Both the position numbers and the translations under genes were made by a program. A stretch of 64,000 bases of DNA from an uncultured virus (IMG/VR IMGVR_UViG_3300028914_000084) (lineage: Duplodnaviria > Heunggongvirae > Uroviricota > Caudoviricetes): the IMG/VR virus record IMGVR_UViG_3300028914_000084; one strand, 5' to 3'. Numbering within the stretch: position 1 is the first letter of the stretch; every line of letters begins with the position of its first letter. This document shows, piece after piece, positions 9,690 through 48,100 of the stretch. The notes under the pieces were generated by a model that did not search any database, was not told where the DNA came from, and saw only the letters and a program-made list of their open reading frames with translations.

Positions 9690-9721
9690 TCCTTTCTAAC
9701 TATTTATTAAGCTTTTTATTA

Positions 9722-9894
9722 TAGTATAGATAATGCTTAGCGTGACTTATAAGGACTTTATGTATAGTTTTTTATAGTGGTTTACAAGGAAAGGAGCGAT
9801 ATAAATAGTGTCTTTTAGTACGTTTAAATAATTAGGAGTGAGCTGCAATAAAAAATGTTCAACTTATAAGCCACACTAAGCACTACCTATGCTA
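9722..9894 (-). ncRNA. Candidate hairpin RNA with antisense anti-RBS loop segments
   Basis: 32-bp inverted repeat (9722-9753 with 9863-9894); 4 of 5 mismatches are G-U on the minus strand; loop has 18/18 matches to two phage RBS regions. Confidence 0.7.
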
Positions 9895-9935
9895 AAATGT
9901 TTTTTCAAAAAATCCTTTCCGGAGAATTTTCAAAG

Positions 9936-9944
9936 AGGGGCGCG
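9936..9944 (-). other. Candidate cos site (CGCGCCCCT)
   Basis: GC-rich island just upstream of terS and HNH, flanked by G/C runs and TTTTCAAA repeats. Confidence 0.45.
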
Positions 9945-9966
9945 ATAAAGGACGGGGGGTATGTTT

Positions 9967-10248: not shown

Positions 10249-13200
10249 TTATTCAGCTCCTTTCAAATACTTATAAAGTGTAGACTTAGAAACACCCATC
10301 TTTTTAGCTATTTGTTCTATAGTAAAGTTAGAATCAGCCATTCGCTTAGCTCTTTCTATTTGTGCTGTTGAAAGAGAAGCTTGTTGTTTAGGCATTGCTC
10401 TTTGTCTCAATGAATCAGGGTCTGAATTGTCAAGTATTTGCTTTAATTTATTATTACTTATAGCACCAGCTTGTATAGCTTCCCATTCTTTGTCATCGAT
10501 AGTTATGTTACGCTTTCTTCTAGAAACCGAACCAATTTCCTCTCTATTCTTACTTAATGAACGTTGACCAAGTTTCTTTAGGTCTTCACCAGAAAGTGAT
10601 GGGTCCTCAGATATACGTTTACCTAGTTCTACATTAGACTTACGTAATGCTTCCCTCTCCCTCCATGCGTTCTTCTGAGCATCGTTTAGTTTAGCCTCTA
10701 GTGAGCTAACCTGTTGTGCATATTGTCTAGCAGCAGAGGGATTATATTGTAGGTCTTTGGTATTATGTATCTCTAATCTAGCGTTGTTAGCTAATGCTTT
10801 TAAACTGTTGGCATAGTTAGCATACTCTATCTCCTTAGGGTTACGTGGGTCTCCCATTAGGGTTCTAGCATCATCTGCTTCAGCCATTCTTGTGCTTGAT
10901 TCGGTTCTCTTAGCAGTTCTATAGACTATATCCCCTTTTTTATTTGTATAATATCCAGTACCATCTTTAGCTACATGTAGTACAGGAGCATATTTATCTT
11001 TAGCCTTAGGGTCTCTTGTATCATAGGATATCTTTTTACCATCTACAGTAGTCATAGTTCTTATACCAGTAGTTTGGTCGATACTTCCTACAGCAAAATA
11101 CAATTTACTAGGGTCTGCTTGAGTATATATTAAAGAACCTTCTGGTTTACTTGGGTCGTAATAAGATTTACCTTTAATATTTACTTTAGGTTGACCTTGT
11201 CTTTTGTCTATTCTTTCTTCACCTTTTGCTCTTGAAACAATTGTTCCAGCTCCACCATAACCGATAATGTTTCCATCAGCATCTCTTTTTATCTGATACT
11301 TTGCTTTTAGTCTAGATATTTCATTATCTATTTCACTTGCTTTATAGTCATACTTATGTTTTTCTGCATCAATAACAACCATTGAATGCTTAACAGCCAT
11401 TGCTAAATCTTTATCATTAGCACCTTGTAAAGTCATGTCAGTTATAAGATTAGATACAACACCCATTTCTCTTTGTTTAGTTCTGTTTGACATAGCTGTA
11501 AATTCATGACCATCATATTTATATATCTTATTTCCTTTACTATCAGTTTTTATTTTCCCATTTGAATCATAAACTGGTTCGCCTTCATACATTCCTGGGT
11601 CGAAACCTTTTAAATCTTGTAAATATGGTCTTCTAGAAACTTTAACTTTACCTTTAGGATCATCAGTAGGTATACACATTACTGTATCACCATCAAAATC
11701 AGCACCTGATAATTGGTCAGCTACTTTTTTATTAATACAAACAGCATCAATAGTATCCGATTTGCCAATTAGTTTTTGTCCTAATTTATTTTTATTATTA
11801 ACAGTACATACTGGAATTTCGAATGTTCCAGAATGCGGATATCTTACTAATGCTAATTTAGTTCCATCAGCATATCCAGGAGCATATATTTCATTTTCTT
11901 TTAATGTATTATTAGGTATAATAACATGATATTTTTGTCCTGGTAAAGCAGCAGCTTTTAAATCAACAGCGGCTTTATCACAACCATCAGCAAACTTTTG
12001 AAGATAGTATTTCTTTATAACTGGGTTCGTTAAGTTATTTATTTCCTCGAACTCTTCTGTTTTATTTGCTTTTGCTAAACCAAGTTGCTTTTTAATCATG
12101 GTAATGTTTTGTTTAGATAAGAATTGTGATGGTAATGCATCAGACCATTCAGTCCAATCACCTTCAGCAGATTTCTTGTTAATTAAACCTAGTTTCTTTT
12201 TACCTTTTTCATCAGTGTACCAATATTGTCCGCCTTGGTCAGCGTCTTTTATTGTGGAACCAAAAGGGTTTTCTGGATCTTTCTTAATATTTTTCAATAC
12301 TTGTTTTACATTTTTATCAGGGTCCATAACTGGAGTTCCTCTAGATTTGTTAGTATTGAATATAACATCTACACCTGGTGGAAAGTCTTTATCATCACCA
12401 TAAACAGCCATACCTTTTAAATAATGAGTTCCATCTACTAATATACGAACTTGAGAATAGTGGTCACCATTAAGGCTTAAATCTTTAACGCCTCTTCTTA
12501 ATTCAATAACACCATCTTTGTCAACACCTTTAATACCATCAGAATCTTTATCTTCTGCATATCTTATTTTCAATCTCTTAGAATCTAATGATTCTGGATA
12601 ATTAAACTTCTTTTCTAATGTTTTACCATTATCTCTTGAGATATATTTAGTTAGTGTTTCAATCTGGTCATAATTATATAATTCAGAAGGTGTATTTTTT
12701 CCTTTTGCTGGTTTTATTTCTGGTTTACATAATACTTTTTGAATAGTTTGATTATTTTTATTTGTTGGTTGTGGAATACGGTTACTATATGTTCCATAAC
12801 CTTCTTTTTCTAGTAAATATAAAGCAGCATCTAATTTTTCTCTAGATACATTTATTTCTTTTTCTACTCCTTTACCAACATCAATCATTCCATATTTAGA
12901 TTCATCTATTCTTTTCTTTAAAGAAGCAGCTAAATCTCTAGTTTGATTTTCTTTGGTTTTAGCCATTTGTAGTTTATAACCTCTAACTGTGGATTCACTG
13001 ACATTTCCTAATTCTCTACCAATTTGAGTATCACCCCAAGTTGGATGTTCTTCCATTATTTTTCTTACTCTAGAAAATATAACAGCTTGTCTATCTTCTT
13101 TACAGATTCTTTTTTCAGCTCTATAATCGTTTATAGATAATCCAAAAGTATTTTTAATATTTTCAGGAGTCTCTTTCCAACCACTTAATTTTAATTGTTC

Positions 13201-13386
13201 TACTTTTTGTAAGAAATCTTTAGGTCTCTGAATTGGTTTATCACCTGATCCATAATGATATCTTCCAGAACCTGGACCAACTTTAGATTCAATATGGTCT
13301 AATCCGACATGTTCTAGAAATTCCTCTTCAGACCATTTAGAAGAACCCAAATAACTAATTATTTCATCAGCTAATTTTTGACTCAT
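10249..13386 (-). CDS. Single-subunit two-barrel RNA polymerase (YonO-like) with HTH domains
   Basis: LVRYPH (RxP) and GADFDGD catalytic motif; HTH-like segments at the N- and C-termini. Confidence 0.82.
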   Translation of the reverse strand: MSQKLADEIISYLGSSKWSEEEFLEHVGLDHIESKVGPGSGRYHYGSGDKPIQRPKDFLQKVEQLKLSGWKETPENIKNTFGLSINDYRAEKRICKEDRQAVIFSRVRKIMEEHPTWGDTQIGRELGNVSESTVRGYKLQMAKTKENQTRDLAASLKKRIDESKYGMIDVGKGVEKEINVSREKLDAALYLLEKEGYGTYSNRIPQPTNKNNQTIQKVLCKPEIKPAKGKNTPSELYNYDQIETLTKYISRDNGKTLEKKFNYPESLDSKRLKIRYAEDKDSDGIKGVDKDGVIELRRGVKDLSLNGDHYSQVRILVDGTHYLKGMAVYGDDKDFPPGVDVIFNTNKSRGTPVMDPDKNVKQVLKNIKKDPENPFGSTIKDADQGGQYWYTDEKGKKKLGLINKKSAEGDWTEWSDALPSQFLSKQNITMIKKQLGLAKANKTEEFEEINNLTNPVIKKYYLQKFADGCDKAAVDLKAAALPGQKYHVIIPNNTLKENEIYAPGYADGTKLALVRYPHSGTFEIPVCTVNNKNKLGQKLIGKSDTIDAVCINKKVADQLSGADFDGDTVMCIPTDDPKGKVKVSRRPYLQDLKGFDPGMYEGEPVYDSNGKIKTDSKGNKIYKYDGHEFTAMSNRTKQREMGVVSNLITDMTLQGANDKDLAMAVKHSMVVIDAEKHKYDYKASEIDNEISRLKAKYQIKRDADGNIIGYGGAGTIVSRAKGEERIDKRQGQPKVNIKGKSYYDPSKPEGSLIYTQADPSKLYFAVGSIDQTTGIRTMTTVDGKKISYDTRDPKAKDKYAPVLHVAKDGTGYYTNKKGDIVYRTAKRTESSTRMAEADDARTLMGDPRNPKEIEYANYANSLKALANNARLEIHNTKDLQYNPSAARQYAQQVSSLEAKLNDAQKNAWREREALRKSNVELGKRISEDPSLSGEDLKKLGQRSLSKNREEIGSVSRRKRNITIDDKEWEAIQAGAISNNKLKQILDNSDPDSLRQRAMPKQQASLSTAQIERAKRMADSNFTIEQIAKKMGVSKSTLYKYLKGAE

Positions 13387-14334: not shown

Positions 14335-14361
14335 TATAAAAGGACGTGATTTTTACGCGAA
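14335..14361 (-). promoter_or_regulatory. CGCG promoter-like motif, variant copy
   Basis: 15 nt identical to the 26919 copy, but the -10-like hexamer is TTTTAT. Confidence 0.6.
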
Positions 14362-17826: not shown

Positions 17827-18467
17827 CCCCCGCTAACAAATAAATCTACTCTATCTGTCTTCATTGAACTACCACAACTATCAAGAATAATAGCGTCGTA
17901 CTCAACACCATCTATAGTCAACACTAATTCTTCATAGTATTTATATAAATGTACACCGTCCGCAACAAACCATCCCTGATTTGCCAAATATGTCGTAGCT
18001 GTAGCAACCACTAACTTACCATTCCAAGTATACCAACCATGCTCATCTACACCAAAATCCCAACTACATAATCCACTACCAGTACACTCACCAGTACCAG
18101 ACCCATCAGCAGCCCAAAAGCTAGTCATTCGTGTTTCGTAAGTGCTACTATAGTTTATCGGTTCGTAACTATACTCATTATCTTCGCGTACGTTATCCAA
18201 AACCAATTGATTATCTTGTTCAATATCTTCTCCAACATACTCTTCCTCCTCTGGAATATCTACATTTTCAGTAATTTCCTCAGTTTCAACCCTTGTAAAA
18301 CACCCCATATAAGCCCTAAAAACGGCCTTCTCAGCGTTGTTTGTATAATGACGATAAATCAGACGGTTACTTATGAAAATAACCGCCAAACCTAACATAA
18401 ATACACAAAATAAAGCTAATATCACACCCCTAATTTTATTCTTTTTCGACCGACTCATTCCTATCAT
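17784..18467 (-). CDS. Membrane-anchored 3D/double-psi-barrel-like cell wall protein
   Basis: N-terminal TM helix, acidic linker, C-terminal LDSCG....RVDLFV. Confidence 0.55.
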   Translation of the reverse strand: MIGMSRSKKNKIRGVILALFCVFMLGLAVIFISNRLIYRHYTNNAEKAVFRAYMGCFTRVETEEITENVDIPEEEEYVGEDIEQDNQLVLDNVREDNEYSYEPINYSSTYETRMTSFWAADGSGTGECTGSGLCSWDFGVDEHGWYTWNGKLVVATATTYLANQGWFVADGVHLYKYYEELVLTIDGVEYDAIILDSCGSSMKTDRVDLFVSGGWAVKDTMIQVRRK

Positions 18468-24528: not shown

Positions 24529-25194
24529 TTAAATCTCCTTATAATCTTTTAAATATCTTTTTAACTTTTTTATAGCTCTTATTTTAATTCTTGAAACTTG
24601 ACATTGACCACGGTACCTAACACCAAGTTTTTTATATATCATTTTTTTAATAGTTTTCTGTGTTAATACACTATACCCGTTCAAACCAAATGTGTGGTTT
24701 ATAACAAATTGTTCAATATCTGATAACTGATTAATAGCGTTATATAGTTCTTTATTAGTTTCTTTTTCTATAACACTGTTTTCTATATTTATATCGTCTG
24801 GTATTAGTTCTATAGTATCTACACCGCATCCAGTTGTATCAATATTTAAACTAAGCATATCAAACCATTGTTTATTTGATTTTTTCCTACCATAATTATA
24901 TAACTCATGTCTAATACAAGATATAGCATAAGTATTAAATTTCGTATTAGATTCGCTATCAAAACTTCTAGCAGCTTTACACAATCCAATCATACCAATA
25001 TCATAAAAATTATCTATGTCTTTATATATACCTAATTTTTTAATAACATAATAAATAAGATTCTTATTATCTAATACTAATTCATGATATCTTTTCATAA
25101 AATGTTCATATTCAATGCCTGCTTTATAAGTTGTTATAATATCATGATTACAATACCATTGTTCAAAATCAGTCATAATATGGCTCTCCTTCAT
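24529..25194 (-). CDS. Sigma-70 family sigma factor, sporulation-sigma-like
   Basis: Region 2 (GMIGLCKAARSFD...KFNTYA..CIRHEL) and region 4 (LTQKTI...QCQVSRIKIRAIKKLK). Confidence 0.85.
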   Translation of the reverse strand: MKESHIMTDFEQWYCNHDIITTYKAGIEYEHFMKRYHELVLDNKNLIYYVIKKLGIYKDIDNFYDIGMIGLCKAARSFDSESNTKFNTYAISCIRHELYNYGRKKSNKQWFDMLSLNIDTTGCGVDTIELIPDDINIENSVIEKETNKELYNAINQLSDIEQFVINHTFGLNGYSVLTQKTIKKMIYKKLGVRYRGQCQVSRIKIRAIKKLKRYLKDYKEI

Positions 25195-26918: not shown

Positions 26919-26945
26919 CATTATAAGAAGTGATTTTTACGCGAA
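26919..26945 (-). promoter_or_regulatory. CGCG-N14-TATAAT promoter-like motif
   Basis: TTCGCGTAAAAATCACTTCTTATAATG. Confidence 0.75.
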
Positions 26946-27566: not shown

Positions 27567-28805
27567 TTACCAAACTATATAATTATTTTCATTAAAATTT
27601 TTCTTTTGTGATAACGCTCTCGATATAGCTAAATCTATTCCAGATTTACTCTTCAAATGATAATAGTATAAATCTTTATATGGTGTATTTAACCTATCAA
27701 TTCGTCCAGATGCTTGTTCCATTATTTTATAACTATAGTTTTGACTATAAAATATAATAGTATTGCAATATATACAGTTCCAACCTTCTGCTCCAGCTGA
27801 ATACTGTACCAAATACACCCAATTATCACCAGATGGTAATGGTTCATGTTTGTGACCATTCCATTCAGCTATTTCATAATGTCCTTCTAAACCAGCAATA
27901 TAAGCCATTCCTCGTAATATCTCAAGTTCATAATCAAAATTGTAAAATATAATAGCTTTTGGATGTTCTTCTAATATTTCTGCTAGTGCTATTTGTCTAG
28001 AATCGTCTTCGTTTACAATTCTTCTTAAAACATAACACAACTCACTAATTTGTTTAACTGGTTCGTCCGTAAATGGATTCCACTTCTTTTTCATAGTGAC
28101 ATTATATAATTCCTTATTATATTCAGTATATATACTTTCATGATGTCTGACAGTATCTCTTTTAAAATCCATATTTATTAATATCTTATTTTTATATTCT
28201 ATCAAAGGTTGAATATTTATATACTTTTCTATTTTAGGATACTTTGCAAATCTAGAAAATACAACATGTTCTGCTACAAATTCTGTTTTATTTTTATAGA
28301 AACCATTTGCAACAAAAACAGGAATATAATCAGACCAGCAATCACCTGGAGTAGCTGATAATATAATCCACTTATTTTTCTTAGCTATTTTATAAAAAGC
28401 TTTTACCCAAGCACCCGAACCAACAAGTCTTTGTTCGTCAAAAATAAAAAAGGACCCGTACACATTCTGATACTTCTTAATATTATTCCAACTATCAACA
28501 TATATATGATTGCCATATCTTTTATATTGTTCATTATCAGTTGATAATAGAAAATGAGTAAGTTCGCCCTCCCATTCAAGAGTATCTCTCTTTCTAGCAG
28601 TTGTTATAATATATAAATCTCGTACAGGTACTTTCATCGGAACATAATCCGGATTAATACTACCACCATGCTCTTTAAAATAATAGTAAAGGGCGGTTCT
28701 AGATTTACCAGAACCAACCCCACCATTAAGTATACAACCGTTACACATTTTATTTACTGCGTCCATTTGATAAGGATATAAAAATTGTTTATTGTTTGAA
28801 TTCAT
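27567..28805 (-). CDS. Superfamily 2 helicase
   Basis: GGVGSGKS, FIFDE, LSATPG, AEGWN, QASGRIDR. Confidence 0.88.
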   Translation of the reverse strand: MNSNNKQFLYPYQMDAVNKMCNGCILNGGVGSGKSRTALYYYFKEHGGSINPDYVPMKVPVRDLYIITTARKRDTLEWEGELTHFLLSTDNEQYKRYGNHIYVDSWNNIKKYQNVYGSFFIFDEQRLVGSGAWVKAFYKIAKKNKWIILSATPGDCWSDYIPVFVANGFYKNKTEFVAEHVVFSRFAKYPKIEKYINIQPLIEYKNKILINMDFKRDTVRHHESIYTEYNKELYNVTMKKKWNPFTDEPVKQISELCYVLRRIVNEDDSRQIALAEILEEHPKAIIFYNFDYELEILRGMAYIAGLEGHYEIAEWNGHKHEPLPSGDNWVYLVQYSAGAEGWNCIYCNTIIFYSQNYSYKIMEQASGRIDRLNTPYKDLYYYHLKSKSGIDLAISRALSQKKNFNENNYIVW

Positions 28806-29076
28806 TTATATCATCTTTCCTAATCCTTCCGATTGTTTTATATTCATAAGAAGTTATTTCTTTTGTATAATAATTATACTTAACTCTAAATTTTCTTATT
28901 TTCTTACCGTCTTTAACGGCTAATTTGATAATTCTAATATTCCAATTTCTAGAACATTTTGTTATCTCTATATCATCAGTTGTGATCTTTTTAAAACCTT
29001 TAAAATAGTTATCATTGCAGTATTTAACTACCATATTCTTTGATAAATTTATTAAATTATTTTTACTTAATATCAT
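28789..29076 (-). CDS. Hypothetical protein
   Basis: SD plus ORF. Confidence 0.6.
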   Translation of the reverse strand: MILSKNNLINLSKNMVVKYCNDNYFKGFKKITTDDIEITKCSRNWNIRIIKLAVKDGKKIRKFRVKYNYYTKEITSYEYKTIGRIRKDDINEFKQ

Positions 29077-29090
29077 ATTTATTTCTCCTT

Positions 29091-29591
29091 TTATTCTTCT
29101 ACATTATTCATTCTAGCAGCAAATCTATCAGGCATAAATTTAACGCACATTGATTGTAAATATGCTGTAGTACCACTATTATTACCCATAGTCCAATTAT
29201 ATGGTCTAATATCCATATCTACACTACTGATATTCAAATCATCAATCATATCTATTATATCTTCTCCGATTTGTCTTATACTAGTACCATCATCAAGATA
29301 TACTGCTGGATTTCTACCAGCTCCAAATTTTACTTTAACAGGTAAAGTGTTAAATGGTTCTTCGCCTTCTTCTACAGGAGGTTTTCTTTTAATATGCCAT
29401 CCATCTGCTTCTAATACATCACATATTTCATCAGAACTCATTTCTTTTCCATCAAGAAATCCATTACCAATAACTATTGAGAAACTTCTTTCTCCGTTTT
29501 GATTAAATTTACTTGGTGCTCCTGAAAAGTTTCTATAAACTATTCTTGCATCATTAAACTCCAAAATATTTCCTCTTTTATTAATTTCCAT
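29091..29591 (-). CDS. Probable single-stranded DNA-binding protein
   Basis: Next to the polymerase; YRNFSG, RPYNW, TAYLQSM resemble phage OB-fold SSBs. Confidence 0.65.
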   Translation of the reverse strand: MEINKRGNILEFNDARIVYRNFSGAPSKFNQNGERSFSIVIGNGFLDGKEMSSDEICDVLEADGWHIKRKPPVEEGEEPFNTLPVKVKFGAGRNPAVYLDDGTSIRQIGEDIIDMIDDLNISSVDMDIRPYNWTMGNNSGTTAYLQSMCVKFMPDRFAARMNNVEE

Positions 29592-29626
29592 TATTCATCT
29601 CTCCTTTTCTTTCCTTGAAAATTATT

Positions 29627-29747
29627 AAAAAAATAAAAAAGAATAGTAAATTATATATCGATTTATACTTTTCTAACTTACCACTATGAATCTTCTAAAT
29701 CGTTCTCATTCTATATATAATTTGGACTGGTATGTCCATCTATTCTT
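29627..29747 (-). ncRNA. Candidate structured small RNA (three-way junction)
   Basis: Nested 8-, 11- and 7-bp stems plus a side hairpin, between a motif copy and a U-tract; no SD-led ORF. Confidence 0.65.
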
Positions 29748-29749
29748 CT

Positions 29750-29776
29750 CATTATAACAAATGTTTTTTACGCGAA
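29750..29776 (-). promoter_or_regulatory. CGCG-N14-TATAAT promoter-like motif
   Basis: TTCGCGTAAAAAACATTTGTTATAATG. Confidence 0.75.
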
Positions 29777-32700
29777 TTAATCAGCTGTAAACATTTCGAA
29801 ATCTCCATATTGAGATATAGATTCTACAGCACTGTCGACTAATTCATTATAATATCTTCTATCAATAAAATCATTTCCATTATTAAATTCATCTCGTATC
29901 ATTTCAGATTCGACCCAACGATATCCTTTACTGCCACCAACAGAATTATATTTACCATCTTGATCTCTCATTAATAATCCACCACCTTTTCCAGGTAATA
30001 CTGGACAAAAGTTACCAACCTTCCCAACAAATTTATAATCATGACCACTATTGATTTCGTCTAACAAATCTCTACTTACCGTTTCAAATTCACCATCAGA
30101 TATTTTACCATCTTTATAAGATTTCTTTAATTTGTCTAATTCTTTTTCTGCATTTGTAACATCTGGTAAACTTTCATTTAAATCTAAATATAATGCAGAC
30201 TTAACAGATTTAGTTTCACACATATCCTCAAATTCAATAGGTTCTTTACTAAATAATTTCTTGAATACATAAGGAACTTGGAATTGTGTACCTGTAGCAG
30301 TCCATTCGCCACTATGCTTAGTACAGTCTCCTGGAGAATAACCATATTCTTTTTCACAACTTTCTGCTGTAGCATATTTAGCAATATAAACTGCATCATT
30401 TACTAAACACATTCTTTCGTATGTAGCCTCATGTTCAAATGTATAACCATATTTCTCACCAAATTCCATAACAAATTTAATTATTTCATTATCTGCATTA
30501 GGTATCTTTATAGAATCTGTTTTAATATGTGCAACTGTATATCCACGTTTTTGAACCTCTTCTTTTAGATCTATCATAAATAACGCTCCACGTTTTGCTA
30601 CAAGATTGTCTTTGTTTCTGACATCTCTAAATGGATTATCAAAATTAGCAGCTGTTAAACCGTATACAGAATTTATAGCAGTCTTTAATGCGTTAGCCAA
30701 AGATTTAGATGTCATTTCACCATCAATAACTTTTTGAATATATGGTGTTAATTTGCCACCTAACATCTTATTAACTTCATCCCAAGCTTCGTGCTTGATA
30801 CTAACACGACCCTCAACAATTTCTCTGAATACTCTAGTGAATCTAGGTCCAAATACACATTCTGCTATACTACTATGTGGATGCATTGAAACTATATCGA
30901 GTAAAGCTACCCTATTATACATACCTGGTTCAGAATATACATGACCGCCTTCACCAACTTCTTCACCTTTATAAGTTGATACGCCATTCTTATATTGATA
31001 TCCAGGAAAATATGGTAATAATGATTTCTCAGACCCATGTTTTTGAGACATCATGATAGGACAAGCTTCTTTTAAGAATTTAAGAACCTCGTCAGGTAAT
31101 TCTTTAACAGGTTGAGATAGATTTCTATAACAGAATTCACTTTGTGGTTTCTTTTCATTACCAAATATGATTTTTGTTGTTAATGCGTTTGTAGTATCAT
31201 TAACAGTCATTCCTGCTAAATCTGCTAGGATTTGTCTAGCTGTCCAATCAGGTTCAAGATGATCAAATACTGCTTCTGTAGCTATAACATCATTATCACA
31301 ATATTCTGCAACTTTAGCCCATAATTCCTCTGGTACTGGCTCGTCCCAAGGTAATCCAAGTTCTTGATGATGTATACCTAATTCAATCTCAAATTTCTTT
31401 AATGATTTCTTATTTCCAGCAGAAGCAAAATCATATACATCAGTATAAGATAAATTATAAGCTTCTCCAAAAAAAGCATTCTTATCACCACTTACTATCC
31501 TTTGAGATAAATTATATAATTGATCGTTCGAATATCCTAATAATCTAGCATATATAATATGATTATCGTATCGTCTATTATTAAAACCTATTAAACGATA
31601 TTTTATAAGTTCCTCGATATCCTCTGGTGAAGGGTTTATCATTCTTATAACTGGATTTTCTTTACCTTTTAATTTCCAATTAACAAGAAATAAATTTGGG
31701 AACACTTCAATATCATAAAATGCTATTTCTTTTTCTTTACTATCTACAGGTGTTGATACATCTTCAGATTTAAAATGCATTTTATTAACAAGTTTTAAAC
31801 AATAATCAGCATGATTTGTACTATTCATTGCGAATGAAATAATATCATTTTTCATATTACTAACATCATATTTTAAACCCTGTTCATATGAATCCTCTAG
31901 CAACTTATATATAAAATCTACACTAGGTTTTGTTCCAGGATGTATTTCTTTATTTAAATTCCTTTCTATTAATTGTCGTAAACTTTTTTCACTCTTTATA
32001 GTATTATCACTTACCACTCGTTTGACCTCCTTAATAGGTAATCCTGAATTTATTGTAGAAATCGGTACGTTATTACATTTAGTTAATTTTCTTCTTAGTG
32101 AACTTTTACCAGTAAATACTTTTATTTCAATACTATCTGCGTATACTCTACTTAATTTAGTTACATCGCCAGTATAAATATAATGTAAGTGTATACCAGC
32201 ACCACTTTTAGACAATTCAGCATATGTCTTAGGCCACTTACTAGCCTCTTCTAAATTTTTCTCATATGATTTATTACCATTTTCATCCTTTATATCAAAA
32301 TCTATAACAATATGATTTTCTGGAATCTTTACATAATGAATCTTATGAGAATCCAAATCTTTTAATGTAGTAGTTACATCGTCCCATTTTTTATTTGGTG
32401 TTTCATTTGTATTGGCGTATTGTGCTAAACAATCACCACATTCTTTATCAAATATAGATTTCTGCTCCTTAAAATCTATAGTATATGAATTATTCTTTTC
32501 AACAGGTTTAGATTCTTTCTCATCAGAATCAAATATCTCTTTTCTAAACCCGCTATAATAACTTCTAACACGTTCGCCTTCGATATTAAATCTATCATTA
32601 TATTCTTTAAAGTAGTTTTTTAATTCTTCTTTAAATGCTCTCTGTGAGAATGGATAACCTACTTTTGCCTCGTCACAATATGTTTTATACATTTCCCAAG

Positions 32701-33829
32701 CAGATTTCAAAGTAACTCCATCTTCTCTTTTGAATATATGATATGAGTCGAGTACAAAGTTATAGAAATCATTTGATGCACTCATCATTGATGTTGGAAT
32801 ATAGTGGTCATAAGCCCCAGGATTTTCTTTATAAACCTCCATACAATGATAAGCTATAGCACCTAATTCAAATTTTATCTGATTAGTTAAAGTTTTGTAT
32901 TCTTTAGAGCTTACTTTATTACCAGTAGGATGTACATCTATTAAACGTCTTATTAAACCGGATTTACCGTCTGTAATCTTTACTGGTTTATTAGTACCCA
33001 TAAATAAGAAACATTTAAACCTATTAGCATATGTTGATTTAAATTTTTCATTAACTGTCATCAATTCATGAGATACTAAACTATTCAATCTAGTGTTATC
33101 TTCAATTCTTGATAAATCACCATCGTGTTGGATAGCTACTAATGGATTTGTTTTAAAAGATTCTAATGCAAATGAATTGTTTGCAGAACCTAAAGCCTTG
33201 GCATCAAATACTGAATAATAACCTTCAAATAATTGTTGTATAATATTTAATATAGTAGATTTACCAGTACCTGCTGCCCCATACAATACTAAAAACTTTT
33301 GTATATTTTTAGAATCACCAGTAACTATAGCACCTATAGCCCATTCTAATTTTCTTCTTTCTTCTTGCGAATATAAAGTAGATATAAGTTTTTCATAAGC
33401 ATCTATATTACCAGGTTCTAGTGGATATGATAATTTCTTACTAGCATAGTCTTCTTTCTTAACATCTGTGTTAGAGAATATAATATTTTCATCTAACATC
33501 TCGAAAGAATCACGCTTTTGTTTTTGACAATATTTATGCCAGGAGTCGATGGCTCCACTTGTAGAATCCCAAGTATACTTAGGAATAACAGTATACTCAG
33601 GATTTTCTTTCTTTGCTTTTTCTGCAACTCTATATATTTCACTATCAATTATAGCTAATGCGTCATCTTCGTTTGTAGACCATATTTTCTTATCTTCTAA
33701 CCATACTGCATAAAAATCGCCACCTCGTATCATCAAATCAGTAGACTTTGGATATACTTTAAACTTAGGAACTATTTCTATAATATTATTTTTACAACTA
33801 TGTTCAGATACGATTAAAAAATCAGCCAT
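29777..33829 (-). CDS. SF3 helicase-primase-family B DNA polymerase fusion
   Basis: GAAGTGKST; IVIDFD and SKSGAGIHLHY (prim-pol); FYDIEVF and YCDNDV (exonuclease); LDIVSMHP, KTAINSVYG, KTDS (PolB). Confidence 0.88.
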   Translation of the reverse strand: MADFLIVSEHSCKNNIIEIVPKFKVYPKSTDLMIRGGDFYAVWLEDKKIWSTNEDDALAIIDSEIYRVAEKAKKENPEYTVIPKYTWDSTSGAIDSWHKYCQKQKRDSFEMLDENIIFSNTDVKKEDYASKKLSYPLEPGNIDAYEKLISTLYSQEERRKLEWAIGAIVTGDSKNIQKFLVLYGAAGTGKSTILNIIQQLFEGYYSVFDAKALGSANNSFALESFKTNPLVAIQHDGDLSRIEDNTRLNSLVSHELMTVNEKFKSTYANRFKCFLFMGTNKPVKITDGKSGLIRRLIDVHPTGNKVSSKEYKTLTNQIKFELGAIAYHCMEVYKENPGAYDHYIPTSMMSASNDFYNFVLDSYHIFKREDGVTLKSAWEMYKTYCDEAKVGYPFSQRAFKEELKNYFKEYNDRFNIEGERVRSYYSGFRKEIFDSDEKESKPVEKNNSYTIDFKEQKSIFDKECGDCLAQYANTNETPNKKWDDVTTTLKDLDSHKIHYVKIPENHIVIDFDIKDENGNKSYEKNLEEASKWPKTYAELSKSGAGIHLHYIYTGDVTKLSRVYADSIEIKVFTGKSSLRRKLTKCNNVPISTINSGLPIKEVKRVVSDNTIKSEKSLRQLIERNLNKEIHPGTKPSVDFIYKLLEDSYEQGLKYDVSNMKNDIISFAMNSTNHADYCLKLVNKMHFKSEDVSTPVDSKEKEIAFYDIEVFPNLFLVNWKLKGKENPVIRMINPSPEDIEELIKYRLIGFNNRRYDNHIIYARLLGYSNDQLYNLSQRIVSGDKNAFFGEAYNLSYTDVYDFASAGNKKSLKKFEIELGIHHQELGLPWDEPVPEELWAKVAEYCDNDVIATEAVFDHLEPDWTARQILADLAGMTVNDTTNALTTKIIFGNEKKPQSEFCYRNLSQPVKELPDEVLKFLKEACPIMMSQKHGSEKSLLPYFPGYQYKNGVSTYKGEEVGEGGHVYSEPGMYNRVALLDIVSMHPHSSIAECVFGPRFTRVFREIVEGRVSIKHEAWDEVNKMLGGKLTPYIQKVIDGEMTSKSLANALKTAINSVYGLTAANFDNPFRDVRNKDNLVAKRGALFMIDLKEEVQKRGYTVAHIKTDSIKIPNADNEIIKFVMEFGEKYGYTFEHEATYERMCLVNDAVYIAKYATAESCEKEYGYSPGDCTKHSGEWTATGTQFQVPYVFKKLFSKEPIEFEDMCETKSVKSALYLDLNESLPDVTNAEKELDKLKKSYKDGKISDGEFETVSRDLLDEINSGHDYKFVGKVGNFCPVLPGKGGGLLMRDQDGKYNSVGGSKGYRWVESEMIRDEFNNGNDFIDRRYYNELVDSAVESISQYGDFEMFTAD

Positions 33830-35041: not shown

Positions 35042-35956
35042 CTAAATTTTATCGTACATAACCCCGTCAACATTGAAGTCTAATAATATAGCTTTCTCTA
35101 GTCCGTTAACAAAGCGTCTCTTACTTTCATCTTTTCCATCATATATTCCAAAATCAACGTAACTATCAATTGTCTTATCTTCTGGATTATAAATCCAACC
35201 TACAAATTGACCATCTGGTGTTTTAGGGATACCTAATGATTCATATACATCATTTAAGAATAAATACCCTTGAGCTCTTAATCTATCATTAGCCCAATTT
35301 TGTTGTTTCTTTAAGAATAATAAATTGTAGTTAGGGTCTTTTCTATAATAATCACTTAATTCATCAAAGAATTTAGCATAAACACTTGGCGAATTATCGT
35401 CTATTTTTGTAACTGTTTCTTTTTTCTTTTTACCCTTTTCATCAGTAGTTTCAACTTCTTCTGTTTTGATACCTAAACGAAATTCATCGTCTGCATCCTT
35501 ACCTAATTTATCTATAACATTTTTACGATACTTTTTATAACTATTTTCTAATACTGTATAAGCAGTCATTAAAGCTACATTACGTTTCTTAAGAATTGTA
35601 TGACTACCTATTAAACATGAAATTGATATAGCTTCTAACGCAATTGCCGGAGCATATAATCTTATTAATTTTCCAGCAGTTATAGCATAAGCCTTAGTTA
35701 AATCTTTTTTAGCATCGTTTTCGTTATATACATCTTTTAATTCTTCATTATTTAAACTATTATTTATTTTTTCAATATTTTCTTTGTGTTCTTTAATTAC
35801 AGTATCTACTTTTAAAGTTGCTTTACATGCAACTACAGTTCCTGCAACACTTGCTACAATACCAGTAGCTAATAATATTTCAGGACTATGTTTTTTTATT
35901 TTGAAGCTAGCTTTAGCAATTAAACGACTAGCTTTTTCTTTAATATTATCTTTCAT
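35042..35956 (-). CDS. DUF6353-like protein, paralogue 1
   Basis: KHSPEILL..G..ACKAT; LNDVYESLG...GW...LDFNVDG. Confidence 0.7.
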   Translation of the reverse strand: MKDNIKEKASRLIAKASFKIKKHSPEILLATGIVASVAGTVVACKATLKVDTVIKEHKENIEKINNSLNNEELKDVYNENDAKKDLTKAYAITAGKLIRLYAPAIALEAISISCLIGSHTILKKRNVALMTAYTVLENSYKKYRKNVIDKLGKDADDEFRLGIKTEEVETTDEKGKKKKETVTKIDDNSPSVYAKFFDELSDYYRKDPNYNLLFLKKQQNWANDRLRAQGYLFLNDVYESLGIPKTPDGQFVGWIYNPEDKTIDSYVDFGIYDGKDESKRRFVNGLEKAILLDFNVDGVMYDKI

Positions 35957-36894: not shown

Positions 36895-36921
36895 CATTAT
36901 ATCGTATGTTTTTTACGCGAA
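36895..36921 (-). promoter_or_regulatory. CGCG-N14-TATAAT promoter-like motif
   Basis: TTCGCGTAAAAAACATACGATATAATG. Confidence 0.75.
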
Positions 36922-37686
36922 TTATCCCCATCTATCAAAATTATGAGTTGGCGATTTTTCATAGTCTAATACTATACATGGTTCAGTATCGTCTACTAAA
37001 CAAGTTGACATATTTAATTTTATTATGCCGTTTGTAATATTCCATCCTATCAAATCACCTTCTTTCAATGGATCTAATCCATACCCAGAATATAATTCAT
37101 TTAATGATACATAATCTTGATGGTTTATTTTTTCATTAAGTTCGTTTATCACTTTATTTATAGTGTTCATGTCAGACCTAAAATACCTTCCAGATATTTC
37201 ATCTCTAAATAAAGTATTACCACTAGATGTGACAATTATTGTATTATTCTTTGGCGGATCGTTTTTAATATCGTCTTCGTGTATTTTATCTCTTATTTTT
37301 TGCTCTTCTTTTTCACCAATAGTCTCAATAACTTTCTCCTTATATTTTAATAATGTTTTCTCAGATAATGCACAAGCTGCACCTAATGCTGCATTTCTCT
37401 TTAAATTTATGCTATTACCACCTATTATACAGCTAATTGAGATAATTTCTAAAGCTACTATTGGAGCATAATCTTTCCAGCATATTTTAATAATTTCTTT
37501 ACTAGACAAACTAGATTCTCTTTCTTTTTCAATATCTTGAATTTTCATCGTAACTCTTGATGTTGTAGTCATAGTCCAAAATGTCGCTCCTACAGTTCCG
37601 ACTATACCTACACCTGTTAAAATTTCAGGACCATGTTTTACCAAAGCCCTTTTAACATTATTAGTAATATCCTCAAATTTACCCAT
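36922..37686 (-). CDS. DUF6353-like protein, paralogue 2
   Basis: KHGPEILTGVG; SGRYF; VSLNELY...IGW. Confidence 0.7.
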   Translation of the reverse strand: MGKFEDITNNVKRALVKHGPEILTGVGIVGTVGATFWTMTTTSRVTMKIQDIEKERESSLSSKEIIKICWKDYAPIVALEIISISCIIGGNSINLKRNAALGAACALSEKTLLKYKEKVIETIGEKEEQKIRDKIHEDDIKNDPPKNNTIIVTSSGNTLFRDEISGRYFRSDMNTINKVINELNEKINHQDYVSLNELYSGYGLDPLKEGDLIGWNITNGIIKLNMSTCLVDDTEPCIVLDYEKSPTHNFDRWG

Positions 37687-37882: not shown

Positions 37883-37909
37883 CATTATATGGTATGATTT
37901 CAACGCGAA
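37883..37909 (-). promoter_or_regulatory. CGCG-N14-TATAAT promoter-like motif
   Basis: TTCGCGTTGAAATCATACCATATAATG; overlaps the upstream stop codon. Confidence 0.75.
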
Positions 37910-38649
37910 ATAGGATTAGAAACAAACCAATCTAATTCTGGTTCCATTGTGAAAAATATCATGTTTACTTTCATACCATTTGATAATGTATCAGGTACAA
38001 GTTCTATTTGAACGTCCGGATAAGCTTGGACATCGTGATAATCATTACTATACCACACTAATTCATCACCTATAATAGTTGATTCATTACCCAAAATATG
38101 TGCCCATTGGTTTAACGTTACTCTACCTCTAGTATGTAATAATTCCAAAAATTCTGCTTCATATCGTAACATTTCATCCATAGTACATTCTACATATTGA
38201 CCAGTTAACACATCATAAAATAAATTATCATTGTCGTCATAAACCATACCTTTTTCATTATATTTTTTTTCACATATTTTAACCTGTATTTTACTATCGG
38301 CATTCTCATATAGTTCATTTGCAGCATTTTTATACTCTATATAAGAATTTTGTAGTAGACAATAAGCTGATGCGAGAGTTGTTTTAGTCTTTTGATTGAT
38401 ATAATTAGCACCGAATATGCAACCGATTGTCGTACCGGCACTTAATATAGATGGAATATATTCTTTCCAATATAATTTAATAATATCTTTTTTAGTTAAT
38501 AATTCTTTATCTTCCCTAGAATTATATAAATTATTAGCTTTTATTGTTGCCTTTATTGTTAATCCAGAAGTTACAATAACTCCTGCAGCACCTATTACCG
38601 ATAAAATAACAGGTGAGTTTCTACTTATAAAATTTTCAAATTTACCCAT
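37900..38649 (-). CDS. DUF6353-like protein, paralogue 3
   Basis: RNSPVILSVIG..TIKAT; YWKEYIP; VTLNQW. Confidence 0.7.
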   Translation of the reverse strand: MGKFENFISRNSPVILSVIGAAGVIVTSGLTIKATIKANNLYNSREDKELLTKKDIIKLYWKEYIPSILSAGTTIGCIFGANYINQKTKTTLASAYCLLQNSYIEYKNAANELYENADSKIQVKICEKKYNEKGMVYDDNDNLFYDVLTGQYVECTMDEMLRYEAEFLELLHTRGRVTLNQWAHILGNESTIIGDELVWYSNDYHDVQAYPDVQIELVPDTLSNGMKVNMIFFTMEPELDWFVSNPISR

Positions 38650-38860: not shown

Positions 38861-38887
38861 CATTATATGAGATGTTTTCAACGCGAA
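38861..38887 (-). promoter_or_regulatory. CGCG-N14-TATAAT promoter-like motif
   Basis: TTCGCGTTGAAAACATCTCATATAATG. Confidence 0.75.
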
Positions 38888-39028: not shown

Positions 39029-39055
39029 CATTATAAGAGACGTTTTTAACGCGAA
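39029..39055 (-). promoter_or_regulatory. CGCG-N14-TATAAT promoter-like motif
   Basis: TTCGCGTTAAAAACGTCTCTTATAATG. Confidence 0.75.
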
Positions 39056-39447: not shown

Positions 39448-39474
39448 CATTATAAGGTATGTTCATCACGCGAA
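39448..39474 (-). promoter_or_regulatory. CGCG-N14-TATAAT promoter-like motif
   Basis: TTCGCGTGATGAACATACCTTATAATG; lies in the 3' end of the upstream gene. Confidence 0.7.
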
Positions 39475-39674: not shown

Positions 39675-39715
39675 ATACTCACCTCCTTTAAAAATAAAAA
39701 AGAAAAAGGAAAAGG

Positions 39716-39811
39716 CTATTTATTAGCTTTCTTTTCAATAAAGTCAGCTAAATAAGCACATCCATTTCCTAAAATTGTTCCAGCTACTAAAGCTACTATT
39801 AAATATAACAT
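39716..39811 (-). CDS. Membrane micropeptide (31 aa, cassette)
   Basis: MLYLIVALVAGTILGNGCAYLADFIEKKANK, with SD. Confidence 0.55.
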   Translation of the reverse strand: MLYLIVALVAGTILGNGCAYLADFIEKKANK

Positions 39812-39832: not shown

Positions 39833-39859
39833 CATTATATCATATGTTTTTTACGCGAA
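39833..39859 (-). promoter_or_regulatory. CGCG-N14-TATAAT promoter-like motif
   Basis: TTCGCGTAAAAAACATATGATATAATG. Confidence 0.75.
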
Positions 39860-40082: not shown

Positions 40083-40109
40083 CATTATAAGAGATGTTTC
40101 CAACGCGAA
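40083..40109 (-). promoter_or_regulatory. CGCG-N14-TATAAT promoter-like motif
   Basis: TTCGCGTTGGAAACATCTCTTATAATG. Confidence 0.75.
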
Positions 40110-40371: not shown

Positions 40372-40398
40372 CATTATAAGAGACGTTTTCAACGCGAA
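40372..40398 (-). promoter_or_regulatory. CGCG-N14-TATAAT promoter-like motif
   Basis: TTCGCGTTGAAAACGTCTCTTATAATG. Confidence 0.75.
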
Positions 40399-45161: not shown

Positions 45162-48100
45162 TTATTCAAACACATCTTTTAAACTTCTAATAACTTCTGC
45201 ATATATAATAAATGTCTTGTCAGTATTAGTTTGAGATATGTTAGTTTGTGTGTCATAAGAATATGTTTTTTTAATGTTGTTAAGTTGAGTAATAAGAGTA
45301 GTATCAGTTATTTGTGTGTCAGTTGGTGTTGCTAATTGATAGTAAACTGAAACATTATTATCTTCTAACCAGTCAGTATATTCTTGTTTAGTAGTGAAAC
45401 CATCGATTTTAAATGTCATTTTTTTACCACTATTCCATCCGAATTCTCCACTTTGAATGTTTGTAGTTATACTTGTTGCATAATAATGATATTCAAAATG
45501 GCTAGAATAAGCACTCATTGTTGCTCCAATTGCTCTAATGTCATTTGGCATTTCATTTGTACTTTGTAAAACATTATTTGTTAATGTCCAATCTTCAGTA
45601 CCATTTAATACTACTTTACCAATTTCACTATGTTTGTACCAATTACCATTACTTTCATATATGTAATCTTGATATGTTCCTATTTTACATAATTCCATAC
45701 TACCTAAATTGATAGGGAATACTTGACTTTCAGTATTATCACTATTTGATATTGTTATTGTGTTGTTTCCACTTACTACATTTACTTGACTAGGTCTACT
45801 TGGACTTGGACTTGGTGTTACAAAGTTGTAATGTAAATCTATATAAGGTAGTAAATTACTTGTATCAGTGTTTATATTTGTTATAGGGTAGATAGTTGCA
45901 TTATATAAAGCATTTAATTGATTTACTAGTGTTGTATCAGTTATTTCAGTTGTTGTTGGTGTAGCATAAGGGTAATATACTATTACATTATTTTGAGATA
46001 ACCAAGTTTGGAATTGTTGTGTTGTCATTTCTTTTGTAGCATTGTAATAAAAACCAAATGAGTTATATGAAAATATTGCATTTGTAGGATATATACAATC
46101 TTGTAAATACCAAGCTTTGCTTCGACTACCACTTACAAATTTATTGCAGTAAAAAGGTGCATTTTCTTGTGTTGCATCAGTTGAATATATATTTGTACCA
46201 ATATCTATTGAAAAACTATAATAACCAGTAGCGCTTGTTGCTTTTCTTGCTATTGGCTCAGTACCATTTAAAACAACCTTACCAATTGTTTTATATAAAT
46301 ACCATTTATTATTTTGTTTGTATATTCTGTCTTGATATGTACTTATTTTGCATAATTCCATATTACCTAGATTTATTGGATATGTTGTACTTTGAGTATC
46401 ATCACCGTTTGTAATAGTTATATTTTGTGTTCCTGTTACTATATCAATGTTACTAGGTCTTTTAGGTGATGGCGAAGGTGTTACCACATTATAATGTAAA
46501 TCTATATAAGGTAGTAGGTTAGTTGTATCAGTGTTTATATTTGTTATAGGGTAGATAGTTGCATTATATAAAGCATTTAATTGATTTACTAGTGTTGTAT
46601 CAGTTATTTCAGTTGTTGAAGTCTGCTGAGGATAATATACATTAGTATTATGTGTTCCTAACCAAGTTGTCCAATTCCCTACACTTGTTTCACTAGAATT
46701 AAACATTATTGAATTTCCACCATCACGAATGGCAAATAATCCTGCCCTATTACTAGGGTATGATTTGGCATTTATAAAATAATTTGACAAAGCATCTATA
46801 TAATTTGAAATAGAATGTATTATATTAGTATTAATATAATAATTACCTGATGTATCACTGCCTTTATACCACCCTGTTTCACTACCATTTAAAGTGATTT
46901 TACCAATATTTTTTTCTAAATACCACTTATCATTTCTCTTGTAGATTCTATCTTGATAAGTTGATATTTTGCATAATTCTATATTGCCTAAATTTACTTG
47001 ATATGTTGTTCCTTGAAATGTTTCGTATGTTGTAGCTATGTTATTTTTTTCAACTTGAATTGTTCCAGCTATTTCTTGTAATGTTTTTGCTGGGTTTGTA
47101 TCATTAGCTTTTATAAACATATATAAATATTTTGCATTAGGGCTTGTTGTCAAAGTTAATGAAGTAGCACTATTATAACCACTTCGTTGTCCTGCATAAC
47201 TTAAAGCATAATCTCCAATAACAGCAATATCTTCAGTATCGAATATACAAAATCTATCATTACCAAATAGTTCAGTCTTTGATACAGTGTAAGTCGTATT
47301 AGGTTGACAAGGTATATAAATACAACCCCTACCTACGTTTGTTTCGGTTATTTTATTTGAATTTGATAAATAAATATTTTGGGTATTTATATTATTCTTA
47401 TCTAATAAGTTTTTACCACATACTTTAACATTTTGTGTTCCTGTTACTACCTCTATATTTTGTGGATAACTTGGGTTAGGTATACTTGCTACACTATCGT
47501 AAATGAATGCTCCAGTCCCTTGATTAATGTAGAACACATTGTTTACCAAATCATATAGACCAATTTCATTATCACTATTTCGATAGCAAGGTATAAAATC
47601 TCTTACTAATGTTCCATTATAATACATTTTACAAGCCCATAATTTGAATGTTCCTTTATATTGTGTAGCATTTGAATTTCTACCAAACAACCAAAAATTA
47701 AGTTCTACATTATCAATATTTGTTGGTATTGTTGTAGTAGTTGTATTATCTAAAACTACTTTCCCTTCTGGTACATTTAAGTCCCATAAATGTCTATCTG
47801 TGCTTGCTGAGTTTATTATACCGTAATTTGCATCATTTACCCAAAATGCTATTGAATTTGAACCACTTAAAAGGTGATATCTTTTATTAGGTGTACCTAT
47901 ATTTATTGCACCCATTGTTTGATTAGCATTTGTTGGGTTAATAAAAGAAATATCTAAAATAGTTCTTAATTTAGTATCTGCATTTATTCCAGTATCAATA
48001 TATTGACCACCTGTACTTCGAATATAATCAACTTGAGTGTATTCACTTGGTAATATTGCATTTGCTTGATAAGTATTACCACTTATTTCAATAGTATTTT

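Follow-up and report, generated by a model that had tools for sequence, protein, structure and literature searches.

A conserved folded element between the polymerase and SSB genes of an uncultured rumen phage, a candidate small RNA

To our knowledge, few structured non-coding RNAs of virulent phages have been described. Among those studied are packaging RNAs, RNA anti-CRISPRs, and RNAs that either set off defence systems or dampen them. Here we analyse a 64,000-nt stretch of an uncultured virus (IMG/VR record IMGVR_UViG_3300028914_000084; "the window" below means this whole stretch), in which the gap between a primase/DNA polymerase gene and the gene for a single-stranded DNA-binding protein (SSB) holds a folded element of about 115 nt, set between a promoter-like motif and a U tract. 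The helices of this element are kept by compensatory and wobble changes beyond chance, as would be expected of a structured RNA under selection.

Among described systems, the closest in working are terminator-ended small RNA genes, which share with the element a promoter-like motif, the lack of an open reading frame (ORF), a closing stem of the 5′ and 3′ ends followed by a U run, a length of ~115 nt, and a single intergenic copy. In the element, however, the terminator-like stem encloses the whole RNA, where such genes have a 3′ hairpin of its own, the searches described below gave no seed or target, no Rfam family matches, and the RNA is known here from sequence alone. Riboswitches can also be built on a three-way junction with a loop-loop contact, an example being the purine riboswitch. 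The order of promoter, junction closed by its first stem (P1), two arms with complementary loops, U tract, and gene recalls such riboswitch and attenuator leaders, but here one arm is far longer than the other, nearly all helix pairs are A/U, a separate expression platform is missing, and the element is confined to one narrow phage clade, with no homolog found beyond it and no Rfam match. No significant alternative fold with the ribosome-binding site (RBS) was seen.

In the packaging RNA (pRNA) of phi29, two loops have 4-5 nt of Watson-Crick complementarity. Phages of the phi29 type have a small packaging ATPase and protein-primed replication, and their pRNA gene stands at a genome end. The phi29-type pRNA is described as a phage-encoded RNA of ~120 nt with paired 5′ and 3′ ends and a three-way junction (PMC3753930, PMC5340915). 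The focal RNA too has a three-way junction, paired ends, and complementary loops; however, these loops could pair within one molecule, the phage has a large terminase, a portal, and a primase/PolA-type polymerase and is not phi29-like, and the Rfam pRNA model gave no match even at an E-value of up to 10. An operator of the gene 32 type works through an SSB protein that binds its own leader and represses translation. The gene 32 operator of T4 and RB69 is presented in PMC535899 as a folded element followed by a less structured stretch of >40 nt. The likeness is one of layout only, a folded RNA lying directly 5′ of an unstructured A/U-rich stretch with the RBS of the SSB gene. The T4 operator is a ~28-nt pseudoknot with UUAAA/UAAA repeats, whereas the focal element is a 115-nt three-way junction with a U run and its own promoter-like motif; additionally, the focal SSB belongs to another family (PF24083) and close relatives are without the element. 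Within the phage's own group, cassettes encoding miniproteins have the same motif, occupy the same polymerase-SSB slot in relatives, and have the same T-rich end; they differ in their payload, a 24-43-aa membrane peptide in place of a folded RNA without an ORF.

Structure and conservation of the element

All 87 ORFs of the window that were kept for analysis lie on the minus strand. Read along this strand, the gap consists of TTCGCGTAAAAAACATTTGT-TATAAT-GAGAAG, the ~115-nt fold, U6AU7, a 29-nt A/U-rich spacer, AAAAGGAGAG, and the SSB ATG. The element is 76% A+T. Its parts and their neighbours are as follows.

29777-33829 (minus strand): primase/DNA polymerase fusion gene, 1350 aa (phrog_4210 at an E-value of 0, primase phrogs, DUF5906)
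29592-29776 (minus strand): intergenic gap holding the element, 185 nt, between polymerase stop and SSB start
29743-29776 (minus strand): promoter-like motif, presumably a promoter; TTCGCGT box at 29770-29776, 14-nt spacer, TATAAT at 29751-29756, then GAGAAG
29740-29747 with 29639-29646 (minus strand): P1 closing stem, 8 bp, in the minimum-free-energy (MFE) and centroid folds
29740-29750 with 29636-29646 (minus strand): extended form of P1, 11 bp including two G.U pairs, in the MFE and centroid folds
29740-29750 (minus strand): 5′ strand of P1, GAGAAGAAUAG, overlapping the conserved 3′ part of the promoter-like motif
29724-29737 (minus strand): P2 side hairpin GGAC-AUACCA-GUCC from the fold, loop AUACCA at 29728-29733
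29713-29723 with 29648-29658 (minus strand): P3 from the fold, an 11-bp stem of A/U pairs throughout
29703-29712 (minus strand): 10-nt purine-rich bulge AGAAUGAGAA, unpaired in every fold
29696-29702 with 29659-29665 (minus strand): P3b from the fold, 7 bp
29666-29695 (minus strand): apical domain, 30 nt, containing P4 and an 11-nt loop
29693:29675, 29692:29676, and 29690:29678 (minus strand): P4, a short helix defined after the covariation was seen, with its loop at 29679-29689
29648-29658 and 29636-29646 (minus strand): 3′ strands of P3 and P1 in the fold
29627-29640 (minus strand): U6AU7 tract, a terminator-like tail directly after P1 and overlapping it
29592-29626 (minus strand): A/U-rich unstructured spacer and Shine-Dalgarno sequence (SD) of the SSB gene (AAAAGGAGAG), with no significant local fold (z +0.45)
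29091-29591 (minus strand): SSB gene, 166 aa (PF24083 at 9.3e-32; phrog_4787)

An initial annotation of this DNA had drawn a closed three-way junction between the polymerase and SSB genes, followed by a U-tract, and every helix of it is present on the minus strand, at the coordinates given. For the 124-nt stretch 29627-29750, the folding energy is -23.8 kcal/mol, compared with -14.9 +/- 2.65 in its shuffles (z -3.34, none of 200 as good), while the whole 185-nt gap folds less distinctively (z -1.61, 11 of 200 shuffles as good). The plus strand folds equally well (z -4.10, 1 of 200 shuffles), as does the element under DNA parameters (z -4.33), and folding energy alone therefore fixes neither the strand nor the molecule. 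The 30-nt loop of the annotation has the right length at the tip of the long arm; it is not an open loop, since it contains the covarying pair 29690:29678. Three other pairings were considered and dropped: the tip pairing of the MFE fold (U61-A80 and its neighbours), because columns 61 and 73 covary instead; the RNAalifold pair 29738:29723, which is A.G in two contigs (X24 and X5 below) and whose base 29723 pairs with 29648; and a pseudoknot joining AUUC of the tip to the purine bulge, which is broken by a change in the homolog L001.

The comparison set is made up of close relatives: the window, one full homolog, and variant lists from rumen-run contigs. The sole full homolog retrieved, L001, lies in G002, a complete 65.5-kb IMG/VR record whose SSB is 76% identical. 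Contigs of four rumen runs were compared with the stretch, and three of these added variant lists (X7, X24, and X5); the X24 contig has a depth of 2.4 (<5), such that its variants may be errors. Identities between the window and L001 vary along the region.

29627-29750 (minus strand): the element, 116/124 identical, 93.5%
Last 300 nt of the polymerase gene (minus strand): 233/300, 77.7%
SSB gene (minus strand): 421/504, 83.5%
Helicase gene (minus strand): 1117/1249, 89.4%
28789-29076 (minus strand): a small gene, 280/288, 97.2%

Because the genome is a mosaic, sequence identity alone is only moderate evidence, and the argument for structure lies in where the changes fall. Seven substitutions separate the 115-nt RNA from L001; five are in paired positions, no pair is broken, and the two unpaired changes are at the junction base 29738 and in the purine bulge (A29706 to G). 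Two of the pairs show double compensatory changes, 29734:29727 (C-G to U-A) and 29690:29678 (U-A to C-G). The variable positions are distributed over the five sequences in the following way.

29690:29678 (minus strand): U-A in the window, C-G in L001, X7, and X24, U.G in X5
29734:29727 (minus strand): C-G in the window, X7, and X24, U-A in L001, U.G in X5
29723:29648, the end of P3 (minus strand): A-U in the window and X7, G.U in L001, X24, and X5
29728:29683, a proposed loop-loop pair (minus strand): A-U in the window, L001, X7, and X5, G.U in X24
29738, the junction base (minus strand): U in the window and X7, C in L001, A in X24 and X5

Single-sided changes occur at four pairs, one of which is the proposed loop-loop contact (29734 and 29678 in X5; 29723 in X24, X5, and L001; 29728 in X24). 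All of them are transitions that give G.U on the minus strand and A.C on the plus strand, which together with the orientation of the genes favours a minus-strand transcript. X5, with U.G at both doubly changed pairs, appears to represent an intermediate stage, and the X7, X24, and X5 contigs contribute pair-keeping changes only. Helices P1 and P3b are invariant in the five sequences, as are 10 of the 11 pairs of P3, the remaining one being its end pair 29723:29648 (A-U or G.U). The 5′ strand of P1 is unchanged in the window, L001, X7, and X5, and in X24 where this contig covers it. In a simulation with seven random substitutions, the chance of breaking no pair with at least as many changes inside pairs was P = 0.019 under the a-priori 33-pair model, and P = 0.0036 under a 41-pair model that includes parts defined afterwards. 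A shuffle control on the two-row alignment did as well in 62 of 500 cases, a control that has little power with two sequences, and a slid-partner control on the window/L001 alignment gave no compensatory pair. The covariation in relatives that the initial annotation had named as a check is seen, in a homologous locus that is conserved, with compensatory and wobble changes and none that breaks a pair.

The loops of the two arms may also be in contact. The apical UGGUA (29679-29683) is exactly complementary to UACCA (29728-29732) of the P2 loop, giving 5 Watson-Crick pairs and a duplex of -4.3 kcal/mol, and the chance of a 5-base complementarity between the loops is 0.045 if the loops are shuffled or 0.028 from the composition of the element. 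Across the five sequences, the only difference in either loop is A29728 to G in X24, which still allows a wobble pair. UACCA:UGGUA is a candidate loop-loop contact that was defined after the data had been seen, and it is suggestive only. The 10-nt purine bulge could serve as its hinge, with the 11 bp of P3 leading outward and P3b plus P4 (~11 bp) returning the tip to the junction; loop-loop pairing between two molecules is equally possible.

The element has no conserved coding capacity. No sense-strand ORF of ≥20 aa lies in the gap, and the ORFs that overlap it (23, 24, and 36 aa) are all antisense and all without an SD, much as had been annotated. The ATG of a 14-aa sense ORF is ACG in L001 and AAG in X24 and X5, and that of the 36-aa antisense ORF is lost in L001 and X5. 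A 13-aa ORF from the ATG within TATAATG was rejected because it has no SD, lies upstream of any start from this promoter, and takes its ATG from a part of the motif present in all copies.

Searches against known families point to a new RNA family. A scan of the whole window with Rfam 15 gave no match at the gathering threshold, and the best matches in 29400-30000 reached 9-19 bits where the thresholds stand at 37-208; no match at an E-value of up to 0.1 came from L001 or four other loci, and ARAGORN found no tRNA or tmRNA gene in the window. Exact-pattern scans of IMG/VR found G002 only, a pattern scan of bacterial genomes found nothing, and blastn against GenBank phages returned A/T-rich chance matches only (best E-value 0.05, ≤30% cover). 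We also built a covariance model, R1, from two near-identical sequences, a basis on which distant homologs could be missed. R1 matched the window and L001 only in 98 and 84 sources, one of the three nearest virus records, nothing in five low-GC Bacilli/Tenericutes metagenome-assembled genomes (MAGs) carrying related phage contigs, and, in 50 whole records of relatives, only three hairpin-plus-U stretches of 41-48 nt (E-value 0.04-0.09). Besides the window, the element is thus found in one IMG/VR phage (G002) and three rumen-run contigs, a narrow clade. SSB clusters at 65-89% identity (P0001-P0007) are known from Logan contigs only, and more copies of the element probably exist.

The promoter-like motif and its cassettes

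The motif upstream of the element is repeated along the genome. Its full consensus is TTCGCGT, 14 nt, TATAAT, GA(G/A)(A/G), and the 16-mer TTCGCGTAAAAAACAT has 11 copies in the window with ≤3 mismatches against 0.95 expected, all on the gene strand.

14346-14361, 26930-26945, 29761-29776, 36906-36921, 37894-37909, and 38872-38887 (minus strand): copies of the motif
39040-39055, 39459-39474, 39844-39859, 40094-40109, and 40383-40398 (minus strand): further copies of the motif

Read by eye, 4 of these 11 copies directly follow a hairpin and T run, and in 10 an SD and start codon come only a few bases later. Across the window and all loci examined, 48 distinct instances of the motif were counted, and in 46 an SD and start codon stand 8-44 nt after the -10-like box. 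In the other two, the focal copy and the homologous copy in G002, this distance is 159 nt.

The motif is also found in relatives whose SSB is only 44-51% identical, and it would be read by a phage-encoded factor, because the box is kept across phages with probably different hosts. PHROG and Pfam scans give the gene set of a siphophage of ~65 kb, with structural and lysis genes (terminase, portal, head protease/major head protein, major tail protein, tape measure, holin, endolysin) as well as a helicase, an exonuclease, and a sigma-like protein. A 1045-aa protein at 10249-13386 (minus strand) matches phrog_4291 with an E-value of 3e-297, and its phrog_4291 relatives occur in Lactococcus phage 1706, Faecalibacterium phage FP_oengus, Rhodococcus ReqiPepy6, and many Arthrobacter, Gordonia, and Streptomyces phages. 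The phage belongs to this Lactococcus-1706 / Faecalibacterium-FP_oengus / actinophage group, and the motif probably serves a transcription factor or polymerase encoded by phages of the 1706 / FP_oengus group. A protein of the phrog_4291 type is described in a preprint (10.1101/842583) as a candidate RNA polymerase of the YonO/crAss-like kind flanked by HTH domains. Two candidates for redirecting transcription are found in this one phage, the YonO/RdRP-like single-chain RNA polymerase (phrog_4291, 10249-13386) and the sigma-like protein (phrog_351, 24529-25194, minus strand), and it would therefore have at least two ways of doing so. Contigs of related phages fall into the bins of small low-GC Bacilli/Tenericutes MAGs, which is weak evidence for the host.

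Comparison of the slot between polymerase and SSB genes indicates that the element is an insert. In the relatives L006/G003 and in a MAG contig (L170, SSB 65% identical), the polymerase stop is followed by 34 nt and the SSB start, and this spacer is homologous to 29592-29623 of the window. Compared with these empty-site relatives, in which only the spacer separates the two genes, the window carries ~153 extra bases, in which motif, RNA, and U tract form one block (29624-29776). In five further relatives (L046, L047, L084, L125, and L160), the slot is filled by the motif, an SD, and a peptide of 24-43 aa with an N-terminal membrane helix, followed by a hairpin and T run in L047, L084, and L160 and by a T-rich tail only in L046 and L125. 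A cassette of the same type is present in L032, where the slot is unconfirmed. The peptides form a family with a tail like IEKKAN, always placed right behind the motif, and one member lies elsewhere in the window.

39716-39811 of the window (minus strand): peptide-family member in the early cluster
L046, 1318-1449: peptide-family member
L047, 1309-1404: peptide-family member
L084, 1301-1375: peptide-family member
L125, 1317-1448: peptide-family member
L160, 1172-1273: peptide-family member
L032, 1025-1129: peptide-family member

From these positions, the miniprotein cassettes appear to move between motif sites. The focal cassette and the miniprotein cassette at 39.7-39.9 kb are identical in their first 16 and last 15 bases, and the exact 15-mer TTCTTTTTTATTTTT also forms the end of the latter (39690-39704). 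No alignment was found between the two payloads beyond these ends, and we rejected homology of the RNA to the miniprotein payload accordingly. The initial annotation's description of a cassette with a structured RNA in place of a protein is thus literally apt.

Other relatives have non-coding sequence in the slot. L083 (1288-1380) has the motif after the polymerase gene and then only a strong hairpin and U tract with no ORF, an arrangement that would be a promoter-terminator pair with a product of ~45 nt ahead of the SSB gene. An unrelated conserved non-coding stretch is found in L140 (about 1405-1500), L149 (1399-1500), and L162 (1395-1500), a near-invariant sequence of ~65 nt that starts with TTTCGGTGACATGTAGCGG, lies directly upstream of the SSB gene, and has no Rfam match. 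In L140 a copy of the RBS stretch TTTGAAAGGAGATTATATTT stands on either side of this sequence, which resembles an insertion with a duplicated target.

Competing readings of the element

Our leading account, tentative and somewhat short of an even chance, is that the element is a stand-alone early small RNA with a leaky end. It is favoured because the block has the grammar of the phage's small transcription units, because it arrived as a unit, and because the slot elsewhere holds an independent gene with its own terminator. Additionally, the pattern of changes suggests that the inner RNA is under selection beyond the needs of a mere terminator. Transcription would begin at the TATAAT of the motif, the phage's own, or immediately downstream of it, and the first RNA bases, GAGAAGAAUAG, would pair with CUAUUCUUUUU ~95 nt downstream to close the three-way junction. 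P1 is an A/U-rich stem of 9-11 bp that encloses about 93-95 nt, with the U run directly after it, and small changes in L001, X7, and X12 leave the tract U-rich; termination would be expected at U6AU7, such that the closing stem and U run would end most transcripts and yield an RNA of about 110-120 nt. The folded product would consist of a side hairpin and a long bulged arm whose conserved tip folds back at the purine bulge onto the P2 loop (UACCA:UGGUA). It would act as RNA where relatives encode a membrane miniprotein, with the invariant loops presumably binding a protein or nucleic acid in trans early in infection. Some polymerases would read on into the SSB-helicase operon, because the base of the stem is A/U- and G.U-rich, and that operon may need this read-through.

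Several observations weigh against a stand-alone RNA. Two contigs from RNA libraries, X24 (29588-29763) and X12 (29459-29673), both at a depth of about 2.4-2.5, cross the U tract towards or into the SSB gene, and the X24 contig starts upstream of the -10 box. These runs were picked for holding words of the stretch, may include DNA carry-over, and give contigs that show neither ends, strand, nor level; if the contigs point to anything, it is to read-through. The P1/U tract was not called by a terminator scan; an intrinsic terminator has a G+C-rich stem with a short loop, and P1 with its A/U- and G.U-rich base would terminate only weakly. Conservation as high as that of the element is also seen in some of the neighbouring coding DNA (97.2% at 28789-29076), and the alignment is shallow, with two full sequences and three contig variant lists that are closely related. 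The element occurs in a single context, always 29 nt from the SSB SD, and since only one context is seen, context cannot separate action in trans from action in cis. Searches for a target or for mimicry gave only low-complexity U-tract matches in the transcripts of the phage itself, and nothing in the pattern scan of bacterial genomes or in the five MAGs. The stand-alone RNA of about 115 nt proposed in the initial annotation is supported as a non-coding, structured gene-strand element between a motif copy and a U tract; its discrete transcript is a prediction, and both RNA-library contigs pass the tract. For its suggested decoy, anti-defence, or host-targeting role, no target, mimicry, or host was identified.

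The most serious alternative, doubtful in our view but possible, is that the element is a cis-acting 5′ leader of the SSB-helicase operon, with the motif as the operon promoter and the folded RNA as an attenuator, operator, or stabiliser. P1 and the U tract could form a conditional terminator set by a protein or ligand, the fold could nucleate SSB binding on the A/U-rich RBS in the manner of T4 gene 32, or it could protect the 5′ end from decay. Such a leader would explain why the element stands 29 nt upstream of the SSB SD in every copy, with the promoter, structure, U tract, and gene in the layout of an attenuator or riboswitch and, downstream, an unstructured RBS region that matches the layout of the T4 gp32 operator given in PMC535899. 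The next motif copy is only at 26943, which leaves the SSB gene, a 95-aa ORF, the helicase gene, and three small genes without another recognisable promoter of this class. Other non-coding structures precede the SSB gene in some relatives, of one form in L083 and of another in L140, L149, and L162, and the RNA-library contigs bridge the U tract into the SSB gene, although they are weak evidence. However, close relatives with the empty site express SSB without such a leader, and where a miniprotein gene with its own terminator fills the slot, a terminator before the SSB gene is normal for the group and needs no special leader logic. No notable alternative (antiterminator) fold was seen, sequestration of the SD by the U tract was no better than chance (z +0.45, 125 of 200 shuffles), the UUAAA/UAAA repeats of the T4 type are absent, and the lack of an Rfam riboswitch match comes with a distribution that is very narrow for a riboswitch. 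A sigma-70-like site in the U tract (TTTACT-18-AATAAT; TATAAT in L001) is a possible SSB promoter; as a candidate it was set aside because such sites number 85 against 88.5 in shuffles.

A bolder proposal we consider unlikely. The RNA could be a compact effector with a tertiary fold, whose invariant loops lock the fold-back shape or, like those of pRNA, join copies into multimers, made early to neutralise a host protein such as an RNA- or ssDNA-sensing defence component; or it could represent a new class of protein- or ligand-sensing attenuator in which the P1 of the aptamer is itself the terminator that gates the replication operon.

It is improbable that the locus is only transcription punctuation, with a promoter that boosts the downstream replication genes, a P1/U-tract stem that is a large terminator or insulator for the polymerase operon, and an inner structure without function. 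The stem and U tract do resemble the A/U-rich hairpin and T-run ends of other cassettes, down to the identical 15-mer tail at 39690-39704, and in L083 the motif is followed by a hairpin and U tract only. Against this, a promoter followed by a terminator is the wrong order for an insulator plus promoter, and the 95 nt inside P1 are the best conserved part, with compensatory changes in P2 and P4 and invariant loops that a plain terminator does not need.

A DNA-level role as a replication origin or priming site, either a promoter-primed A/T-rich unwinding region (T4/T7-like) or a folded single-strand initiation site, is quite improbable. The position between primase/polymerase and SSB genes, the high A+T content, the good fold as DNA and on both strands, and five copies of TAGA/TAGT, partly at 10-11-nt spacing (about 1.1 TAGA expected, a rough estimate from base composition), would suit such a site. 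The element is, however, wholly absent from close relatives with the same replication genes, and it is flanked exactly by the promoter motif and the U tract. The single-sided changes keep G.U (G.T) on the gene strand and would give A.C on the other, which fits a transcript better than duplex or cruciform DNA, and the GC skew has no turning point here.

A chance fold or a functionless, decaying remnant of a miniprotein cassette is highly improbable: inverted repeats form readily in A/T-rich DNA, the element is confined to a narrow clade, and the comparison is shallow, but the element is 93.5% identical against 78-84% for its flanks, no substitution breaks a pair, the payload has no similarity to that of the miniproteins, and the same sequence is found in sequencing runs of bovine and sheep gut metagenomes from several studies.

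Wider genome and significance

We made further observations in the window. Three paralogs of phrog_2152, a family of unknown function, lie in or beside the early cassette cluster (35042-35956, 36922-37686, and 37900-38649, minus strand). On the gene strand, the polymerase-like gene is followed by a 92-aa ORF and, downstream of both, by a non-coding stretch of 277 nt with a C-rich start (9690-9966), whose fold beats mononucleotide shuffles (z about -3.4, from 25 shuffles only) and which may hold the genome end or a regulatory region. Two gaps in the ORF pick are probably coding: 8995-9329, where the minus strand resembles an HNH-endonuclease-like ORF as judged by eye, and 17827-18206, at 40% G+C, which is less likely to be intergenic. 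Additionally, 663-nt repeats (45595-47016) lie within a putative tail-fibre gene of 1593 aa, and 24-nt tandem repeats (8681-8870) within a 171-aa ORF.

The content of the polymerase-SSB slot, led by one promoter-like motif, differs between phages: some relatives have a membrane miniprotein there, this clade has a folded RNA, and other relatives have an empty site, which amounts to a natural experiment; the empty site and the protein payload are ready controls for what the phage gains from the RNA payload. The analysis further brings to light a promoter-like motif conserved throughout the 1706 / FP_oengus / actinophage group, along with an uncharacterised YonO-like polymerase and a sigma-like protein. 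If the effector proposal were true, the RNA would be the counterpart of the small host-takeover proteins from the sister cassettes.

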